The position numbers were made by a program, and so were the translations under genes. Positions 2,150-64,000 of a stretch of 64,000 bases of DNA are shown in pieces. How positions within the stretch are numbered: position 1 is the first letter of the stretch; each line of letters opens with the position of its first letter. This DNA comes from a virus (Duplodnaviria > Caudoviricetes): positions 709 to 64,708 of IMG/VR virus record IMGVR_UViG_3300038393_001585, one strand, 5' to 3'. The notes under the pieces were generated by a model. That model was not told the DNA's origin and did not search any database. It worked only from the letters and a program-made list of their open reading frames with translations.

Positions 2150-2177
2150 CGCCCCCTCCTTCGGGAGGGGGCGTTTC
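2150..2177 (+). terminator. Intrinsic terminator after lysis cassette
   Basis: CGCCCCCTCC-TTCG-GGAGGGGGCG then TTTC. Confidence 0.8.
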
Positions 2178-2210
2178 GTCTTGCCCAAAGGGCTGCACAC
2201 GGCCAACTCT

Positions 2211-2238
2211 GTGGTTGATAATGACAGTTATCCAATAC
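2211..2238. other. dif/Xer-like tyrosine recombinase site (11-6-11)
   Basis: GTGGTTGATAA-TGACAG-TTATCCAATAC; ATAA-N6-TTAT core in an AT-rich patch about 0.5 kb upstream of a tyrosine recombinase. Confidence 0.6.
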
Positions 2239-2285
2239 CGCGCTAGCGTGGCGGTACAACGACCCCACTGGTGAAGGAGACTGCG

Positions 2286-2498
2286 ATGACCGGTGCCGAT
2301 GCCCTCAAGACCACGATGATCAACCGCCCCGAACGACCGCACGAGTTGGTGCCCACTCCACTCCTTAAGGGCGCCCTCGCCCGCTCCAGCGCCGATGCCC
2401 GGCGCTACGCCCAGACCGGGCCGAAGGAACACGAGGACATCTGCCACCTCCTTGCAGACGAGTACCTGACCGAGCTTCAGGCCCGAGGAGAGCTGTGA
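2286..2498 (+). CDS. Hypothetical protein
   Basis: AAGGAG RBS; first gene of the recombinase operon. Confidence 0.6.
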   Translation: MTGADALKTTMINRPERPHELVPTPLLKGALARSSADARRYAQTGPKEHEDICHLLADEYLTELQARGEL

Positions 2499-2749
2499 GC
2501 AGCTCGATGTACTGGCGACCCGCACCCAAAGAAGAGCCCCCAGTGCAGGACCTGCCCTACGAGTTGAAGCGCGCTGTCGCGCAGCGCTTCTGGGGCCACG
2601 ACGGGACTTTGCATGGTGACGACTACGCCCTGAGCAAGGAAGACATCCCCTACCTGGAGGGTCTCGCGGACGCAGGCATTGACGGCGCCACCGAACTGAT
2701 CGAGGCCATCCGGCAGCATGGCCGTGTGCTCGTCTGGATCGGCGGCTAG
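2495..2749 (+). CDS. Hypothetical protein
   Basis: GTGA overlap, phage-like codon usage. Confidence 0.6.
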   Translation: MSSSMYWRPAPKEEPPVQDLPYELKRAVAQRFWGHDGTLHGDDYALSKEDIPYLEGLADAGIDGATELIEAIRQHGRVLVWIGG

Positions 2750-2750
2750 C

Positions 2751-3779
2751 GTGACCGCCCTCGTCCCGCGCCCGTCGGCGGAGCTGTCGACCGACCGGCA
2801 CGACCCCCGCGACGACTGGCCCGACGAAGCCCGCCACCTCGCCGACTATCTGACCGAGTTCTACGGCGACGCCGACCCACTGCCCACCATCGCGGGCGGC
2901 TGGGTCGCCCGGCAGAAGTCTCGGCACACCCGACGCGCATACGTGCGGACGTTCAAGGCGTGGGAGGGATACGCCCGCAAGAGCAAGATCCACCCGCTCC
3001 AGGCGAAGTTGCCTCTGGCCGACGCCTACGCCAAGCACCTCGCCAAGACCCCCACCCGCAACGGCAAGCCGCCCGCAGAGACCACCCAGGCCCAGGCCCT
3101 CGCCGCCGCCGGGAGCTTCTACACCTACGCCGCCCGCCTCCAAGCCGTCGACTCCGACCCGTTCGCCGCCGTCAACCGGCCCTACGTCGACCCCGACTAC
3201 TCGCCCACCGAAGGCATGACCGAGGACGAGACAACCCGGCTCATCCAGACCGCCCGCGACTGGGCGCCCCGCTCCTACGCCCTCGTCATGCTCCTCTACC
3301 TCACCGGCGCCCGCGTCGACGAACTCCTCTCACTCAACGCCGACCAACTCGGCTACGACCGAGGCCACCGCACCCTGCCCCTCACACAGAAGGGCGGCAA
3401 GAAGCGTCCCGCCCCCGTACCGCCGCTCGCCCTCGACGCACTCCTCGCCTACCTCGGCGACCGCACCGACGGCCCACTGTTCACCAGCGAGACCGGCCGC
3501 CGCTGGACGCAGCCCGAAGTGTGGAAGCACCTCCGCGTCCTCGCCCGCCGCGCCGGCATCCCGCAAGCCGCCACGATCAAGCCCCACACGCTGCGGCACC
3601 AGTTCATCACCGACAACCTCGCCAACGGGGTGCCACTCCAGGACGTGCAAGACGCCGTCAGCCACTCCGACCCGCGCACCACCCAGCGGTACAACCGACG
3701 CCGCCGGCAACTCGACAACCACCCCGCCTACGCCCTCGCCGCTCGGCTGGGGGAGAGGCTCCAGCAAGGCGAAGGCTGA
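2751..3779 (+). CDS. XerC/D-like tyrosine recombinase (second recombinase)
   Basis: TGARVDE (R), QKGGK (K), PHTLRH (HxxR), HSDPRTTQRY (H, Y) all intact. Confidence 0.9.
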   Translation: MTALVPRPSAELSTDRHDPRDDWPDEARHLADYLTEFYGDADPLPTIAGGWVARQKSRHTRRAYVRTFKAWEGYARKSKIHPLQAKLPLADAYAKHLAKTPTRNGKPPAETTQAQALAAAGSFYTYAARLQAVDSDPFAAVNRPYVDPDYSPTEGMTEDETTRLIQTARDWAPRSYALVMLLYLTGARVDELLSLNADQLGYDRGHRTLPLTQKGGKKRPAPVPPLALDALLAYLGDRTDGPLFTSETGRRWTQPEVWKHLRVLARRAGIPQAATIKPHTLRHQFITDNLANGVPLQDVQDAVSHSDPRTTQRYNRRRRQLDNHPAYALAARLGERLQQGEG

Positions 3780-3788
3780 GCACGACGA

Positions 3789-3820
3789 CGCCCCCGCAGC
3801 CGAACCCGGCTGCGGGGGCG
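3789..3820. terminator. Hairpin terminator (probably bidirectional)
   Basis: 14-bp stem CGCCCCCGCAGCCG / CGGCTGCGGGGGCG, loop AACC. Confidence 0.75.
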
Positions 3821-3839
3821 TTCTGCTGTCCTAGGGTGC

Positions 3840-3866
3840 TCAGCCCCATCCGGTGTCGTCGCTCAT
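3840..3866 (-). CDS. Putative 8-aa micropeptide MSDDTGWG
   Basis: GAGGAG RBS 5 nt upstream of ATG, convergent on the terminator. Confidence 0.3.
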   Translation of the reverse strand: MSDDTGWG

Positions 3867-4025
3867 GACCCCTCCTCACGTAAGGTGCGGCCTGCCGAGG
3901 GGGTACCCCCACGCCCCGAAGGGTCGCTGCGAACGAGGCAGGCCGCCCGAACACGGTACGCGCGGGCGGCCGTTCTGTCGCCAGTCGTGCCACACTGATC
4001 CCCGTTTCGCTGGGGTGGAGGCTGA

Positions 4026-4412
4026 ATGGCTACTGATCTTGTGGACTTGCTCAAGGACCGTCGGCGGGAACTGGGGCTGTCTTACCACTCCCTTGCTGCT
4101 GCGTGTCTCGACGCAACGTCGAACACGACCGTGTCGGCCGGCTGGCTGCACCGCCTGGAGACAGGAGCGCCGGTGATCCCTCCGTCGCTCGAGATGCTGG
4201 GCGCTCTGGCCGAAGGGCTGCAGTTGCCCCGGGTGCGCCTTCAGGAGGCAGCCGCAGCCCAGTACTACGGCGTGCGCCTGTCGTGGGAGATCTCCGGCGA
4301 CGCCGCAGCCGTACTAGCCGATTTGGCCGTGTTGCCGCAGGGGCAGCGACAGGCGATATCGGATCTGATCCGGGTGCTGGCCGAGGGCGAGTCTGATCAG
4401 CCCTCCAGGTAG
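4026..4412 (+). CDS. XRE-family HTH regulator
   Basis: LLKDRRRELGLSYHSLA...WLHRLETG...SLEMLGALAEGL. Confidence 0.75.
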   Translation: MATDLVDLLKDRRRELGLSYHSLAAACLDATSNTTVSAGWLHRLETGAPVIPPSLEMLGALAEGLQLPRVRLQEAAAAQYYGVRLSWEISGDAAAVLADLAVLPQGQRQAISDLIRVLAEGESDQPSR

Positions 4413-4738
4413 CCCAGCTCCGAGTCTGGCCGACAGTGGCTGCAGGCTGGCACCCCGGCGGCGAGGGCCCGGCGCGCGGTGTCGGAGTCGACGCCCTTCG
4501 CCCGCTTGCCGCGCATGTGGCAGTCGCCGGTGTGGACGCCGATGGGCATGGCGTCCTTGTTGAGGCCGTAGTCGAGGACCCAGTCGGGTGGTGCCGGCCG
4601 GGCCTGCTCGCCTTGCTGCCGTTCCCGCTCGCGGCGTTCTTCGTCGGCGATCCAGCGGCGGGTGCGCTCGAGATCCTGCTCCTGAACGCGTTCGAGGAAG
4701 CGCAGCAGGTCGAGGCGCGAGGGAGCGGGGTCGTTCAC
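4397..4738 (-). CDS. DUF6233-like Zn-binding protein
   Basis: VHTGDC...ARRALAAGVPACSHCRPDSELG motif. Confidence 0.7.
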   Translation of the reverse strand: MNDPAPSRLDLLRFLERVQEQDLERTRRWIADEERRERERQQGEQARPAPPDWVLDYGLNKDAMPIGVHTGDCHMRGKRAKGVDSDTARRALAAGVPACSHCRPDSELGYLEG

Positions 4739-4746
4739 GTGTTCGA
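4731..4746. promoter_or_regulatory. LexA (SOS) box-like site over the DUF6233-like start codon
   Basis: Minus strand TCGAAC-ACGT-GAACGA vs actinobacterial TCGAAC-N4-GTTCGA (10/12). Confidence 0.5.
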
Positions 4747-4793
4747 TTCTAGGCGCTAGTCTGTCCCCGCAGCGCGACGGGCAGAGGGATCAG

Positions 4794-5165
4794 GTGGACA
4801 TCGAACGCATGACGGTCGACGAGCTGCTCGCCAGCCACGCCGTGGACCCGGCCCGCCTGGATCCCGCGCCGGCCGACCCGTCCCGCGCGCAGACGACGGC
4901 CCGCTACGCCCAGCATGGGACGCTGCCATGTACGGCCTGCGGGAAGACGGAGGACTGCCGCACCTCCCGATCCATCCCCTTCCCGGGGCACGGCCCACGC
5001 TGGGTGGACCTGTGCCGAGACCACTCGCTGGCGACGATGCCGCCCTGGACGGGGCCGGCCACAATCGAGGGGGTCCTCGCCGACCTGCGGGCGGTCATGG
5101 GGCGGGGCGCGGGGCTGCGGCTGTGGACGGACGAGGACGGCTGGCAGGATGAGCGTCATGGATGA
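4794..5165 (+). CDS. Hypothetical Zn-finger protein
   Basis: CxxC ... LCxxH motif. Confidence 0.55.
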   Translation: MDIERMTVDELLASHAVDPARLDPAPADPSRAQTTARYAQHGTLPCTACGKTEDCRTSRSIPFPGHGPRWVDLCRDHSLATMPPWTGPATIEGVLADLRAVMGRGAGLRLWTDEDGWQDERHG

Positions 5166-5349
5166 CCCCGGCCGCTACCACCTGACCCTCACCTCCGACG
5201 GCCGACCGGTACAGCACGGCTGGTGGGCGAGCGAGGAGACCGCCCGGGACAAGTTCCGGCGCTGGGTCGGCGCAGTCGGCAACATGCCCGAGCCGCGAGT
5301 CACCCTCACCGACGAGGAGACCGGCGAGCAGCTCGACAGTTGGCCGTAG
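5149..5349 (+). CDS. Hypothetical protein
   Basis: GRYHLTLTSDGRPVQHGWW...; overlaps upstream stop. Confidence 0.6.
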   Translation: MSVMDDPGRYHLTLTSDGRPVQHGWWASEETARDKFRRWVGAVGNMPEPRVTLTDEETGEQLDSWP

Positions 5350-5410
5350 CCGGACTGTCAGTGGTGGCCGCTACGGTGGTTCCTGTCCCAGTCTTGGGCG
5401 AACTCGAATG

Positions 5411-5445
5411 ACGCCCCGCCCGGCGTGATGCACCGGGCGGGGCGT
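5411..5445. terminator. Hairpin between convergent genes
   Basis: 13-bp stem ACGCCCCGCCCGG / CCGGGCGGGGCGT. Confidence 0.7.
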
Positions 5446-5452
5446 GGCGCTG

Positions 5453-5689
5453 TCAGCTGGCGGCCGGCTCCGGGTTCCGGACGGCCTTCTTCGCGGCCAT
5501 CTCCACCTCGTACCGCACCGCTCCCTCGGCTTCGGCATGCTCGGTGACCGCGGCCTGGAAGACGGCGGCGGCTTCGATCCAGGCCTGCCGGGTGCCGGCC
5601 TGGTCGGTGTCGGGGTCGGCAAGGTACTGGGCGTGCGCCGCCTCGGCGGAACGTTCCATCTGCACGAGATCTTCGAAGGTGTGTGCCAC
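5453..5689 (-). CDS. Hypothetical protein
   Basis: MAHTFEDLVQMERSAEAAHA...; AGGA RBS. Confidence 0.55.
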   Translation of the reverse strand: MAHTFEDLVQMERSAEAAHAQYLADPDTDQAGTRQAWIEAAAVFQAAVTEHAEAEGAVRYEVEMAAKKAVRNPEPAAS

Positions 5690-5700
5690 GGGCACCGATC

Positions 5701-5895
5701 CTAAGCGGCGGCCACCACGTCCTCGAGCGCCCGCTCCCGCGCGGTCGCCGCATGCCACTCCTCGACGAGCCGATGGTAGGTCGACCGGTCCTCTGGCCGC
5801 AGTCGGCCACCAGCCCGCAGCATCAGGGCGCGAATGTCCGCGTTCACCGCGGCTGCAGACCGCGGCAGGCCCGGGACCGGGGGAGTGGAGGACAT
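5701..5895 (-). CDS. Hypothetical protein
   Basis: RSAAAVNADIRAL...GGRL...Y.RLV.EW pattern. Confidence 0.55.
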   Translation of the reverse strand: MSSTPPVPGLPRSAAAVNADIRALMLRAGGRLRPEDRSTYHRLVEEWHAATARERALEDVVAAA

Positions 5896-5928
5896 GCGAT
5901 CAGGCTAGTCGCCCGGTCTGACAGTCAC

Positions 5929-6186
5929 CTAGGAGTTCGAGCGGTCCGCGATGTACGTGCCCTTCGCCGGGAGCGTCACGACGAGCCCGCGCTCCCGTAG
6001 CTCCTCGACCGCGCGGCGGACGGTGCCGACGGCGACGCCGACCTGCTCGGCCAGCTCCCGCTCGCCCTCCAGCCGTGCACCCGGCTGCAGCTCGCCGGCC
6101 TCGATCCGACGCGCGATCCAGTCGGCGACTTGCTGCCACACGTAGACCGGGCGGGACGGATCCACCACCGGCTCTTGATCACCCAT
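5929..6186 (-). CDS. GntR-family winged-HTH-only regulator
   Basis: WQQVADWIARRIEAGELQPGARLEGERELAEQVGVAVGTVRRAVEELRERGLV...KGTYI. Confidence 0.85.
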   Translation of the reverse strand: MGDQEPVVDPSRPVYVWQQVADWIARRIEAGELQPGARLEGERELAEQVGVAVGTVRRAVEELRERGLVVTLPAKGTYIADRSNS

Positions 6187-6222
6187 GCTTTGACGCTAGG
6201 GCGGCCCACCGCAGCGCATCTC

Positions 6223-6270
6223 AGCAGGTAGCTCCATACAGCGGTATAGAGCAGTGTGGAGCGGTAGCCT
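6223..6270. promoter_or_regulatory. 10-bp-phased repeat array (likely GntR operator)
   Basis: AGCGGTA at 6240 and 6260, AGCAGTG at 6250, AGCAGGT at 6223, between divergent genes. Confidence 0.45.
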
Positions 6271-6350
6271 CACATCAGGACAGCAAAACGCCCCCGAGGC
6301 CGCAGCCGGGAAGCCCGGCCCCGAGGGCAGCCGACGATCGGAGCGTCGAC

Positions 6351-6578
6351 ATGGGCGAGGGTAGACCCAGAGACCCAGCCACGGACCCAGCCCGGCCGAC
6401 TGGGCTCAGCCCGCTCCAGCAGGCGTGGAAGGACTACACGAGCCACACCGCCGGCTGCCCCCGCTGCCGGACCACCGACGGCGGCCGATGCGCCGATGCC
6501 GCCCGGTTATGGGCGGCGCACCGCGACCTCTGCGACCAGGCCTACGCCGCGCTCGCGGCCGAGCGGGGCCGTGCCTGA
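6351..6578 (+). CDS. Small CxxC protein containing a TTA codon
   Basis: HTAGCPRC...RC motif; in-frame TTA at 6507-6509. Confidence 0.55.
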   Translation: MGEGRPRDPATDPARPTGLSPLQQAWKDYTSHTAGCPRCRTTDGGRCADAARLWAAHRDLCDQAYAALAAERGRA

Positions 6579-6755
6579 CAGGCACCAATTCGGCGTTCAG
6601 TTTTGCCACAGAGGGAAGCCCTGGCCATAACATGCGCCAGCGGTCAGCGCCCACGTGTGGGATGTGTGGGAGTCGTGCAGATAAATGCGAATCTCATCTT
6701 CCGCTACTGGTCGTGCGTGGTGTTGACTCACGGTCAGTGGCCGCTGCATGCATCG

Positions 6756-6992
6756 TCAGTGAAGGAGGTCGGTCACGTGCACCCTCAGGGCCCGCGCGAT
6801 ACGCAGCAGGGTCGAGATGCGGGCGTCCACCAAGCCGGCCTCGACGTCCTGGTAGGTCTTGCGACCGAGCTGCGCGGCGAGGAAGACGGACTCCTGGGTG
6901 CGGTCCTGACGGATCCGGATGATGCGGATGCGGTCGCCGATGGCGCGGCGCTCTTCGAGGAGCCAGGCGTCGTCATCGGGCAGGTGGGGCAC
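6756..6992 (-). CDS. XRE-family HTH regulator
   Basis: IGDRIRIIRIRQDRTQESV...RKTYQDVEAG...ISTLLRIARAL. Confidence 0.85.
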   Translation of the reverse strand: MPHLPDDDAWLLEERRAIGDRIRIIRIRQDRTQESVFLAAQLGRKTYQDVEAGLVDARISTLLRIARALRVHVTDLLH

Positions 6993-7013
6993 CTGTTACA
7001 CGCTGGGGCGACC

Positions 7014-7056
7014 ATGATCATAAGTCAGCCTGGAATTCCAGGCATTCTGTGATCAT
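7014..7056. promoter_or_regulatory. Palindromic operator upstream of XRE gene
   Basis: Perfect 16-bp palindrome GCCTGGAATTCCAGGC (7028-7043) flanked by ATGATCA and TGATCAT. Confidence 0.55.
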
Positions 7057-7198
7057 GGAATCGGCCAGAGTCCCGCGACGGACGGGGCAACCACCCGCGT
7101 AGAGAGAGCGGGGTGCGCAGCCGCTCGGCGGCTGTCACCCGCCACTGGCGGCCCTGTGGTCTGGCATATGCCGCAGGGCTGGCTGTAGTGTCCATGAA

Positions 7199-7214
7199 TC
7201 GAACGGGTGTTCGC
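7199..7214. promoter_or_regulatory. LexA (SOS) box
   Basis: TCGAAC-GGGT-GTTCGC, 11/12 match to TCGAAC-N4-GTTCGA. Confidence 0.6.
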
Positions 7215-7312
7215 CCGAAAGGGTGAACCCACAGGCCAGCCCGCATCCAGGCCAGCAAGCCGGGCATCCGAACCACGCCCCCGAGCCCCGCAAGACGTCA
7301 ACAGGAGACGGC

Positions 7313-7546
7313 ATGGACCGGCAACAGATCCTCGACCTCTACGACTGGACGCCGGGCACCTGCTTCCGGCACCCCCGTAAGGGCGAGGTGCCTACGGCTC
7401 ACGTCCGGACCGTTCGACCCTCGGCCGGCGGCATCCAGGACATCCGCGCCTGCGCGGAGTGTGTGACGTCCATGGAGGAACAGCGGAAGCGAGCAGCTGA
7501 CCGCAAGGGCCTGTCGTACCGGCCTGGGGAGCTGGCCATCGAATAG
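7313..7546 (+). CDS. Hypothetical Zn-binding protein
   Basis: AGGAG RBS; CFRHP...ACAEC. Confidence 0.6.
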   Translation: MDRQQILDLYDWTPGTCFRHPRKGEVPTAHVRTVRPSAGGIQDIRACAECVTSMEEQRKRAADRKGLSYRPGELAIE

Positions 7547-7578
7547 GCCCTGCTGAAGGCCTGTTTCCAGGTGGATTT

Positions 7579-7946
7579 CTGGGGAGCGTCTGGGGAGTGA
7601 AGGGGGCGGGGGAGCGCTCGGGGAGATCCAGCATGACTAGTTACGCTCCGCAATGCTTTCCTATGTTCTCCAATGCTTCGCAGTTCAGAGGGGGTGCGGC
7701 CCCTCGACGGGTAGAACGCCCAGGCGGCGCCCCGTGCAAGAGACAGAACAACACCATCTGGCACGACATCGCCCCACCAGCCACCACAGACACCGCGCCG
7801 AACACCGCCCACCAGGTCACAGCGGCAAGAGACGTGCAGGTCAGGGGACTAGGGCGAGGGCATCTGAGGCAGCAGCACCATCGTCCTGGGGAGCGTCAGA
7901 AGCCGTCGGAACAACGGCTTCCAAATCCTGGGGAGCGGCTGGGGAG
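7579..7946. other. attP-like junction: arm-type repeats on both sides plus Xis-like repeats
   Basis: CTGGGGAG at 7579, 7590, 7886, 7928, 7939 (pairs 11 bp apart), degenerate copies at 7607 and 7618; 10-bp-phased repeats at 7641-7680; lies at the int 3' end. Confidence 0.65.
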
Positions 7947-9244
7947 ATCTTTTTCGTGTCTCCCTCGAACCAGTTCTGCATCGCGGTGCGGCCCCGGCCA
8001 TCCGCCTCGGGCATCATGTGCGCGTAGATCCGGAGTGTGATCGACGGATCCGCATGGCCCAGCCACCTCGAGACTGACACAACCGACTCACGCGCGTCCA
8101 GCTGCACGCTGGCGAACGTGTGCCGCAGCGAGTGGAAGCCCATCTCCCGGTCCTCCGCATACCGCTTGACGGTACGGAACCGGCCCGGCTTCCCCGCGAT
8201 CGGACGCTTCGTCACCACAGGCGGGTCGATCAGCCCGGCCGCCTCCAAGGCCGGCTTCCAGAGGGTGTCGTTGAAGTAGTCCCGCCGCCAGGCACCGCCC
8301 CGGGCCGCCGTCAGTATCAGCTCGAACGTCTGCGGCGCCCGCTCCTTGATCTCCTTCTCCGTCTCGCCCGCTTCGGGGTCTCCCCACGGCAGTGTCACCG
8401 CCGTCGCCGGCCAACGCGCCAAGTGCTCCTGCACCTTGGCCAACAGGTGGGCGGGGACCGGAACGGTCCGTGTCTTGCGGCCCTTCGGCAGGGCGAACAC
8501 GAGCTTCGAGCCGACCTTCTTCACCTGCCGCCGAACATGGATCACTTGGGCTTCGAAGTCGACGTCCTCGACCGCGAGCCCGAACACCTCGCCCTGCCGC
8601 AGCCCCGCACCGACACCGATATCGACGGCGAGCCGCACCCGGGGGTCGATCAGGGACCGCACCAGCAGGACCCGCTCGCGCGACCAGGCATTGGCCCGGG
8701 GCTCAGGGCGGGCAGGCGGGCGCACCGTCTTCTGTGAGCGGCAGTAGTTCTTCGTGATCCGTTCGTCATCGACCGCGGCCTGCAGGATCGCGGAGAGCGT
8801 CCCCCAGACATCGTTGACGGTGCCGGGGCCGAGCTGGGCGTTGAGCGTCTTCAGCCACGCCCGCAGCTGGGGAGTCTTGATCGTGTTCAGCGGATTGGAT
8901 CCCAGGTGGCTGAGGACGTGGTTCCAGACCTTGCCCTTGACCGTGGCCCTGGTGAGCGGGTCGGGATAGTTCTGGTTAGGCCACCAGTGCTCCTCGACGT
9001 ACTCTCGCAGCAGCATCGTGCCATCGCGCGGGTCGATGAACTCGCCGCGGGTGGACTCGTGCTGAGCCTTCGCCAGCCAGGCTCTAGCGCCGTCTACGCC
9101 GAGGAGCTTCTCGAAGCTGCGGTCACGCACTCCCGGCACGCCGGCCACCCGGTAGCGCTTGCCCTGACCGTTGCGTTCGGTGGGGATGGTCCGCTTGCCG
9201 TCGGGACCCTTCTTGAACCAGCGATCCTCGATATATCCAGCCAT
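7841..9244 (-). CDS. int: Tyrosine integrase
   Basis: GLRQGE, PKGRK, FHSLRH, LGH...TLRIY catalytic residues; N-terminal arm-binding and core-binding regions. Confidence 0.95.
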   Translation of the reverse strand: MAGYIEDRWFKKGPDGKRTIPTERNGQGKRYRVAGVPGVRDRSFEKLLGVDGARAWLAKAQHESTRGEFIDPRDGTMLLREYVEEHWWPNQNYPDPLTRATVKGKVWNHVLSHLGSNPLNTIKTPQLRAWLKTLNAQLGPGTVNDVWGTLSAILQAAVDDERITKNYCRSQKTVRPPARPEPRANAWSRERVLLVRSLIDPRVRLAVDIGVGAGLRQGEVFGLAVEDVDFEAQVIHVRRQVKKVGSKLVFALPKGRKTRTVPVPAHLLAKVQEHLARWPATAVTLPWGDPEAGETEKEIKERAPQTFELILTAARGGAWRRDYFNDTLWKPALEAAGLIDPPVVTKRPIAGKPGRFRTVKRYAEDREMGFHSLRHTFASVQLDARESVVSVSRWLGHADPSITLRIYAHMMPEADGRGRTAMQNWFEGDTKKISPAAPQDLEAVVPTASDAPQDDGAAASDALALVP

Positions 9245-9268
9245 GCAGTACCCCCTGGTTGGTGCAAG

Positions 9269-9721
9269 TCAGGCAGCAGCGTTGCCTTGGGAGTCGTCCA
9301 TCGTGACGATCTCACCCTGCCACAACTGGAACCACTGGCCGCCGGCCAGGAACTGCTCGATGGCGGGGTTGAGGGCGCGGACGAGGAGCTCGGCGGGGGC
9401 GTTCGGGTTGACGTGCAGCCGGACTTCGCCGCGGTCCTCCCGTATCTGGACGCAGAGGCGCAGGGGCACGTCGGGGTCTGGCACGTACTGGACGGTGAGC
9501 GGGCTGTCGGGGGAGTCGGCGCTGATGATCTGGCCACGCCAGATCTGGAACCAGCTGCACTTGCCGACGAATTCCTTGAGCGCAGCGTTCAGCGGCGGGA
9601 TGTAGTCCTCAGCTGCAGAGCCTTCGCGGAGCTTGATGCTGACTCGGCCGCGGGTCTCTGTGATCTCTACGAGCTGGCCGGGTGCGAGGTCTGTGGTGGC
9701 TTCGTACACGACGCGCAGCAT
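9269..9721 (-). CDS. Two-repeat hypothetical protein between int and repressor
   Basis: Two homologous halves, each ending LNxAxxxF...WFQxWxGxI. Confidence 0.75.
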   Translation of the reverse strand: MLRVVYEATTDLAPGQLVEITETRGRVSIKLREGSAAEDYIPPLNAALKEFVGKCSWFQIWRGQIISADSPDSPLTVQYVPDPDVPLRLCVQIREDRGEVRLHVNPNAPAELLVRALNPAIEQFLAGGQWFQLWQGEIVTMDDSQGNAAA

Positions 9722-9880
9722 GTACCCTCCCCAGGATTAGTGCGCTTGTGAGTCATGGGGCGTAAGCGCACGGTTGTGGAAGGGTACGTCTTGTATCCGG
9801 ACGGCGACAATCTGTTGAAGTGAATGTCTACTTAGGGACTCTTTCGGACAACCGCCCCTGTAGCGCTGCACCACCTGCCG

Positions 9881-63548: not shown

Positions 63549-63911
63549 ATGCGTATCTTCGGCCGCGAGCCTGCGCTCATCATCGCGATCATCAGCGCCG
63601 CCCTGTCGCTGCTGGTCACCTTCAACTTCGGTCTGTCCGCCGAGCAGGCCGGTGCGATCGTCGCCGTCATCAGCGCGGTGTTCGCGGCGGCCACCGCCGC
63701 CATCACCCGCCCGATCGCACCCAGCGCCTTCACCGGCCTCGTCGCTGCGGTCGCCGCACTGCTCGCCGCCTACGGCCTCAACCTCGGCCCGGAGAAGATC
63801 GGCGCCCTGAACGCGCTCGTCCTCGCAGGACTCGCCCTGGTCACCCGCGGCCAGGTGTCGCCTGCCAGCCCGACAGCGCCCGCAACAGCCCAGCCGCCGC
63901 GGAGCGTCTGA
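63549..63911 (+). CDS. Holin (prophage B)
   Basis: 115 of 120 aa identical to 519-881. Confidence 0.8.
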   Translation: MRIFGREPALIIAIISAALSLLVTFNFGLSAEQAGAIVAVISAVFAAATAAITRPIAPSAFTGLVAAVAALLAAYGLNLGPEKIGALNALVLAGLALVTRGQVSPASPTAPATAQPPRSV

Positions 63912-63929
63912 CCCGATCGGAGCACCACC

Positions 63930-64000
63930 GTGGCCGATGAGCCGACTCTCGGCGAGGTCGTCCGCAGACTTGAGGCCATCCACGCCGACCTCAAAGAAGA
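63930..64000 (+). CDS. Lysis-cassette membrane protein (partial)
   Basis: Identical to 900-970. Confidence 0.75.
   Translation, partial: MADEPTLGEVVRRLEAIHADLKE

Follow-up and report, generated by a model that had tools for sequence, protein, structure and literature searches.

A lone Xer-like recombinase and its likely dif-like target site in a Streptomyces-type temperate phage

In the XerS/difSL system of streptococci and lactococci, as well as in XerH/difH and the archaeal XerA/dif, a lone recombinase is paired with an asymmetric dif-like site that has short inverted arms and adjoins the recombinase gene, and chromosome dimers are resolved at the terminus. XerS requires FtsK (PMC2965235). 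XerC and XerD are two paralogues that act at a dif site in the chromosomal terminus and are activated by FtsK. The phage-plasmid P1 encodes, alongside a full virion gene set, the tyrosine recombinase Cre, which resolves dimers of the circular prophage at loxP, a palindromic site (13-8-13) that occurs once per genome, upstream of the gene. In ResD/rfsF of F and TnpI/IRS of Tn4430, the site is located immediately upstream of the recombinase gene, overlaps the promoter, and is present in one copy per replicon; the IRS of TnpI also has direct-repeat accessory sites. Integrases of the lambda type belong to the same enzyme superfamily, and their attP is split into attL and attR in lysogens.

The locus that we compare with these systems is located in a 64,000-nucleotide stretch of viral DNA (hereafter, the window), which corresponds to positions 709-64708 of one IMG/VR virus record of 64,708 bp (listed as linear, with a CheckV completeness of 100). 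The record is that of a high-GC, Streptomyces-type temperate siphophage, with a gene content that includes a holin, a collagen-like fibre, terminase-to-tail genes, a GH25 lysin, a replication initiator, and a TraB/FtsK-like gene. A nucleotide search of phage and plasmid collections yielded no useful near relatives. An initial annotation of the window had pointed to a second tyrosine recombinase gene headed by a 28-bp dif/loxP-like motif, and this motif is present exactly as claimed (2211-2238, + strand). Its layout is 11-6-11, with an ATAA-N6-TTAT core: the left arm (2211-2221) and the right arm (2228-2238) are imperfect inverted repeats, complementary at eight of 11 positions, on either side of an asymmetric spacer, TGACAG (2222-2227). 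This is the architecture of a Xer-type site (about 28 bp in length, in which an asymmetric spacer of 6-8 bp is flanked by inverted 11-bp arms that end in ATAA/TTAT). Allowing up to three mismatches, the full motif had a single match in the window; the core occurred once in the 64 kb, compared with 0 occurrences in 100 shuffles, and no additional half-site in the window was significant.

The associated gene (2751-3779, + strand) encodes a 342-residue Xer-like tyrosine recombinase, with a SAM-like N-terminal domain followed by a catalytic domain (Pfam matches to Phage_int_SAM_1 and, at 1e-26, Phage_integrase). The GTG at 2751, and not the ATG at 2718, is the most likely start codon, as the relatives are approximately 340-360 residues in length and align from residue 1 of that reading. 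The protein scored 94 bits against the tyrosine recombinase superfamily model (PF00589; cut-off 27.1), and alignment to XerD and XerA revealed that R188, K217, H279, R282, H305, and Y314 are all present, confirming that the recombinase has the full catalytic set and is, as annotated, intact. In the ten plasmid-clade homologues, a lysine aligns at the second catalytic arginine (R282), which may be either an effect of the alignment or a real variant. The best relatives of solved structure were XerA (4a8e) and XerD (1a0p), while no Cre chain was matched in the PDB at an E value of 1e-5. The label “XerC-like”, given previously, is appropriate as a statement of family resemblance but not of orthology: scores of 117-121 bits fall far below the NCBIfam cut-offs for XerD and XerC (330-335) and for XerA (220). 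The XerS model (30 bits, cut-off 267) and the integron-integrase model, IntI (66 bits, cut-off 265), similarly excluded membership. No recombinase of identical sequence was among the relatives listed in one search, the best of which was 92% identical.

Homologous loci were collected from Streptomyces genomes (39 loci), viral contigs (32), and plasmid regions (14), and the main count was performed on the 70 loci with a complete 5' end (691 kb in total). The relatives share 50-95% identity with the recombinase in Streptomyces prophages and 37-46% on plasmids. The initial annotation had made its proposal depend on conservation of the site upstream of homologous recombinases, and the proposal withstood that comparison: ATAA-N6-TTAT is present in 68 of the 70 loci, once in each, always in the same orientation and less than 3 kb upstream of the recombinase gene (30-2700 bp), and nowhere else in the 691 kb. 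One of the two exceptions has the site with a single mismatch. The other, L050 (NZ_CP109180, a 63-kb circular plasmid), has a frameshift-split recombinase gene and no site within 3 kb, such that gene and site appear to decay together. Beyond these 70 loci, the site was found in four further plasmids, and two plasmid loci had only degenerate candidates, with no clean site within 3 kb. The copy number is equally strict in larger sequences. In each of two complete host genomes (9-9.7 Mb), ATAA-N6-TTAT occurs exactly once, at the prophage; the 17-bp core has one copy in each of five host genomes and 20 viral records, and no second copy of the site was encountered in these or in the window.

In blastn comparisons of the loci, similarity took the form of separate islands at the site (window 2203-2238) and at the recombinase ORF, with the DNA between and around them unrelated. 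No other conserved non-coding island accompanied the gene, and neither the neighboring HTH gene nor the upstream genes are conserved across the related loci. The recombinase is, in fact, the sole constant partner of the site among the loci compared, and the site both adjoins the gene and is inherited with it, as in a single-recombinase Xer-like module. Conservation around the site is asymmetric: a profile of 52 distinct relatives showed the left flank to be kept and an abrupt stop after the right arm. In the close clade, the conserved block to the left extends over about 28 bp (2183-2210, + strand), is most pronounced in the 7 bp that adjoin the left arm, and may include the -35 region or serve as an additional binding element. 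The clade whose spacer is TCTCGG (L025, L027, and L034) has a different palindrome in place of this block. Two individual loci were unusual. In L011 (Streptomyces sp. NPDC059649, 13 kb), the module, with its one site, is inverted with respect to the flanking lysis and DUF6233 genes, relative to the window. L003, a 2.9-kb contig binned as a Thermomicrobiales MAG, carries the site and a 93%-identical recombinase; it is almost certainly Streptomyces phage DNA that was mis-binned into the MAG.

We compared (i) the type of site present at each locus with (ii) the placement of its recombinase in a quick protein tree. The 11-6-11 geometry is common to all clades, the arms are complementary at 7-11 of 11 positions, and every spacer is asymmetric, from which it follows that the sites are directional. 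The inner arm bases, beside the spacer, are kept everywhere, while the outer arm bases and the spacer itself vary with the recombinase clade, inverted symmetry being retained. For instance, the spacer of the close prophage clade is TGACAG, between asymmetric arms; at 65-67% identity, there is a clade with TCTCGG and perfectly palindromic arms; and two plasmid clades have arms of their own, with TTACGG or TTACTG as spacers. Each site type is confined to a single well-supported, monophyletic clade. This change of arms and spacer with the recombinase clade points to the recombinase as the protein that would bind the site, and, as the arm classes differ within one host genus, a host factor is unlikely to be the binder. 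The pattern supports, at the level of sequence comparison, the interpretation that site and recombinase form a cognate pair distinct from Int and attP.

The phage has a separate integration system. As had been claimed, the recombinase is distinct from the integrase, a 467-residue protein (Phage_integrase and Phage_int_M matches) encoded at 7841-9244 on the - strand. This is the only other PF00589 gene of the record, and so the module comprises a single linked recombinase on phage DNA. Evidence for the role of Int came from a related lysogen, G002 (an 8.5-Mb Streptomyces contig), in which two window segments (2150-7771 and 7746-9840) are separated by about 66 kb and have only a 15-bp core in common (7746-7760, + strand); an 86%-identical copy of the integrase is found at the far end of this prophage. 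As the two segments share nothing beyond this core, comparison of the sequences indicates that Int and the attP common core at 7746-7760 integrate the phage. Host coding sequence is found beyond the core on each side, placing the insertion inside a host protein-coding gene, and no tRNA was present at the insertion. By eye, the translated flank appeared metallophosphatase-like. The attL and attR of this relative both derive from the 7746-7760 core. The 28-bp site, by contrast, is not split in lysogens as an attachment site would be: it is whole in the chromosomal prophages, with phage genes on both sides, and is positioned a few kb inside one prophage end, which accounts for proviral records that end 3-7 kb from it. 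Because attP is intact in the present record, this record corresponds to the excised or circular phage, or else to a junction between tandem copies.

The recombinase gene and its site belong to a transcription unit that is bracketed by hairpins. An intrinsic terminator hairpin closes the preceding lysis and tail-fibre genes (2147-2177, + strand; -30.8 kcal/mol, z -4.7, with a terminator-like site at 2155-2171) and is predicted to insulate the recombinase unit from upstream transcription; a second terminator hairpin (3788-3821, + strand; -39.8 kcal/mol, z -6.3) closes the unit itself. Between positions 1900 and 4100, the sole sigma-70-like match (0.1 expected) is TGCACA-17-GATAAT (2194-2222, + strand), whose predicted -10 hexamer consists of the inner left arm plus the first base of the spacer. 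In many related loci, a ribosome-binding site or start codon is found 2-20 nt beyond the right arm (in one plasmid, the ATG of the recombinase is only 2 nt past the site), leaving no room for another promoter, so transcription starts in or before the site. As the site carries the predicted -10, regulation would form part of its role. Two short genes intervene in the window: orf1 (2286-2498, + strand; 70 residues), which has a good ribosome-binding site, and orf2 (2495-2749, + strand; 84 residues, GC3 0.81), whose start overlaps the orf1 stop (GTGA). Neither has a Pfam, PHROG, or NCBIfam match, a search of the protein Atlas returned nothing above noise, and no related locus contains a homologue of either. 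Thus, the three-gene operon described in the initial annotation as headed by the site is indeed present here, but its layout is specific to this window. Two other explanations of the motif were considered and set aside. The idea that it is merely an AT-rich promoter, with TGACAG as the -35, was dropped, as the spacer differs by clade and start codons are too near the site; and the HTH gene for which it might serve as an operator (4026-4412) is not conserved beside the module.

More distant homologues are encoded on Streptomyces plasmids, of which 12 of the 14 fetched are circular and two are on records labelled linear. Some of these homologues adjoin ParA or zeta-toxin genes, and some are carried by phage-plasmid-like replicons that encode a terminase or have “prophage-like” content; pSAM1 is a phage-plasmid-like replicon carrying such a homologue (PMC11302927). 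On the host side, no XerD-grade protein was detected in G002 or G004, the host genomes of L014 and L029 (best score 141 bits, compared with the cut-off of 330), and these two Streptomyces seem to be without a canonical XerCD/dif system.

Together, we consider it probable, though well short of certain, that the gene at 2751-3779 and the site at 2211-2238 constitute a self-contained, single-recombinase module of the Xer/Cre type that resolves multimers and is autoregulated. From the pairing, copy number, and co-diversification of site and gene, their independence of Int/attP, and the intact catalytic residues, we infer binding, strand exchange, resolution, and autoregulation in the following form. 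Two recombinase monomers would bind the two 11-bp arms, and the asymmetric 6-bp spacer would make the site directional. With a single site in each genome unit, the system would be inactive in a lone copy, whether integrated or monomeric. Activity would require two direct copies, either in circular dimers generated by extrachromosomal replication or by transfer, or in prophages arranged in tandem, and both would be resolved to monomers without Int/Xis. The excision of a 63-kb element, suggested in the initial annotation, would be the same reaction acting on tandem prophages. Bound recombinase would probably also repress its own transcription and that of the cargo genes between site and recombinase, given that the left arm contains the predicted -10 of the one promoter-like sequence that precedes the unit.

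A single site per replicon, a directional spacer, and circular replicons are the features to be expected of multimer resolution, and all three were found. The earlier suggestion of a resolution system for a circular phase thereby retains its main supports (a cognate pair, one site per replicon, homologues on circular plasmids, and a record in which attP is intact), and resolution would be the likely outcome of that pairing; less of it holds for the present phage as a plasmid, as a search for partition genes found neither ParA nor ParB in the record, and a stable plasmid phase is thus not evident. Several other observations weigh against resolution. A concatemer-packaging phage does not obviously need to resolve dimers; two of the plasmid homologues are on linear-labelled records, and two plasmid loci have no clean site. 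Among the loci compared, no natural product of recombination was seen: none of the loci has two sites, and no breakpoint was mapped to a spacer. Further, conservation of the motif would be expected of a pure operator as well.

The same chemistry would suffice for the opposite outcome, in which the module mainly fuses molecules: an incoming circle would join a resident prophage or plasmid carrying the same site, yielding tandem arrays, phage-plasmid cointegrates, and exchange of arms. We regard this as unlikely, although the family is common to the prophages and plasmids of one genus, the flanks on both sides of the site are strongly mosaic, and the record contains two related lysis cassettes with a period of 63,030 bp. 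The last of these points derives from the ends of the record. Its final 127 bp (63874-64000) exactly match an internal segment (844-970), and the record stops 127 bp into that repeat, at window base 64000; the 326 bp preceding the repeat are approximately 92% identical between the copies (27 mismatches). At the 63,030-bp offset, the holin and the beginning of the gene after it are found again with 94% identity, while the lysins upstream of each are unrelated. The 127-bp end repeat resembles the outcome of an assembly at k=127 whose path runs back into a cycle bearing a variant branch, and the molecule behind the record is either a circle of 63 kb with such a branch or two copies in tandem. Sequence identity between the copies sets in 1.4 kb upstream of the site, however, and not at the site itself. 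Prophage and plasmid clades also have different site classes, simple sites of the lox/dif type favor intramolecular resolution, and no two-site locus was found in the 20 viral records and five host genomes.

A second alternative, which we judge decidedly unlikely, is that the palindrome is a promoter and operator only, for the recombinase or another factor, and that the true recombination target is elsewhere (e.g., a secondary attachment site). The predicted -10 hexamer within the left arm, the start codons 2-20 nt after the site in many loci, and the further conserved block on the left would all fit such a role. Other properties are those of a recombination site: ATAA/TTAT arms in an 11-6-11 arrangement around an asymmetric spacer are the geometry of a Xer site, and the inner arms are retained across clades that differ in their spacers. 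Nor is there another conserved non-coding island that travels with the gene and could serve as the target. As for the other factor, the neighboring HTH gene is not conserved, and a host factor is disfavored by the variation of arm specificity inside a single host genus.

The region between the site and the recombinase gene is a hypervariable slot. Across approximately 70 loci (L003-L087), it ranges from 30 bp to 2.7 kb and contains 69 ORFs in 50 sequence clusters, the commonest cargo being DUF6221; the cargo genes, orf1 and orf2 among them, may be accessory genes that are expressed in the lysogen. It can be conjectured, albeit with little confidence, that the module is a portable promoter-plus-site platform on which Streptomyces phages and plasmids fuse, swap arms, and gain cargo, with tandem lysogens releasing a whole TraB-transferable 63-kb circle without Int/Xis; it would then be more than a resolvase with a housekeeping role. 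We give very little credence to the proposal that the site serves, in the manner of an integron attI, as the insertion point by which the variable intervening genes were acquired. The slot does vary while site and recombinase are 65-95% conserved across loci, and a promoter at the site would express the cargo, but the cargo is not bounded by another such site or by one resembling attC, and the last cargo gene usually overlaps the start of the recombinase gene, leaving no space for one; the score against the IntI model (66 bits, with a cut-off of 265) is also that of a non-member. Finally, an inversion switch, or mimicry of a host dif used with host XerCD, has only a general resemblance to invertase and dif sites in its favor and can be practically discounted, as the single site per genome leaves nothing to invert (a tyrosine DNA invertase acts on two inverted sites) and as the two hosts tested have neither a XerD above cut-off nor another ATAA-N6-TTAT in 9-9.7 Mb.

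The module thus provides a likely 28-bp target for an uncharacterized family of recombinases that is common among the prophages and circular plasmids of Streptomyces, and this target was defined here from sequence alone. The real integration system of the phage can now be told apart from its second recombinase, and the slot between site and gene is flagged as a hypervariable position for cargo that is probably expressed in the lysogen. With two tested hosts lacking both a XerD-grade gene and any other such site, an element with a circular phase could not borrow one there and would have to bring its own system. There are at least four or five natural specificity classes, which, if active, would constitute orthogonal lox-like tools native to high-GC actinomycetes. 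We found no description of the module in the literature on Streptomyces dif/Xer, plasmid multimer resolution, or second recombinases of actinophages.

Compared with the described systems, the module shares with the lambda-type integrases their superfamily and their usual genome position, after the lysis genes and before the immunity region; it differs in that its site is not split in lysogens, no arm-binding N-terminal domain was detected, and the real Int and attP are at 7746-9244. It resembles ResD/rfsF and TnpI/IRS in having one upstream, promoter-overlapping site per replicon, and some of its plasmid homologues are found near partition or toxin genes; unlike the TnpI IRS, no direct-repeat accessory sites were identified, only the conserved left flank. 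With Cre/loxP, it has in common a phage-borne tyrosine recombinase and one palindromic site per genome upstream of the gene, accompanied by virion genes, and it would act similarly on dimers; however, the arms and spacer are 11-6-11 rather than 13-8-13, the lack of a Cre match at 1e-5 argues against membership, and the present phage, unlike P1, integrates through Int/attP and has no partition genes. The lone recombinase, the asymmetric dif-like site with short inverted arms, and the adjoining gene recall XerS/difSL, XerH/difH, and XerA/dif, but those systems act at the chromosomal terminus, whereas the module is found on phage and plasmid DNA, in tested hosts without a XerD-grade gene. It likewise differs from XerC/XerD, as a single linked recombinase in place of two FtsK-activated paralogues, and from all of XerS, XerA, XerC, and XerD in scoring far below the model cut-offs and in its 6-bp spacer and promoter-embedded site ahead of variable cargo. 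The best reading of this comparison is, then, that the module resembles XerS/difSL or Cre/loxP in its mode while being a member of neither, and that its particular twists are a site within the promoter and a hypervariable slot for cargo.
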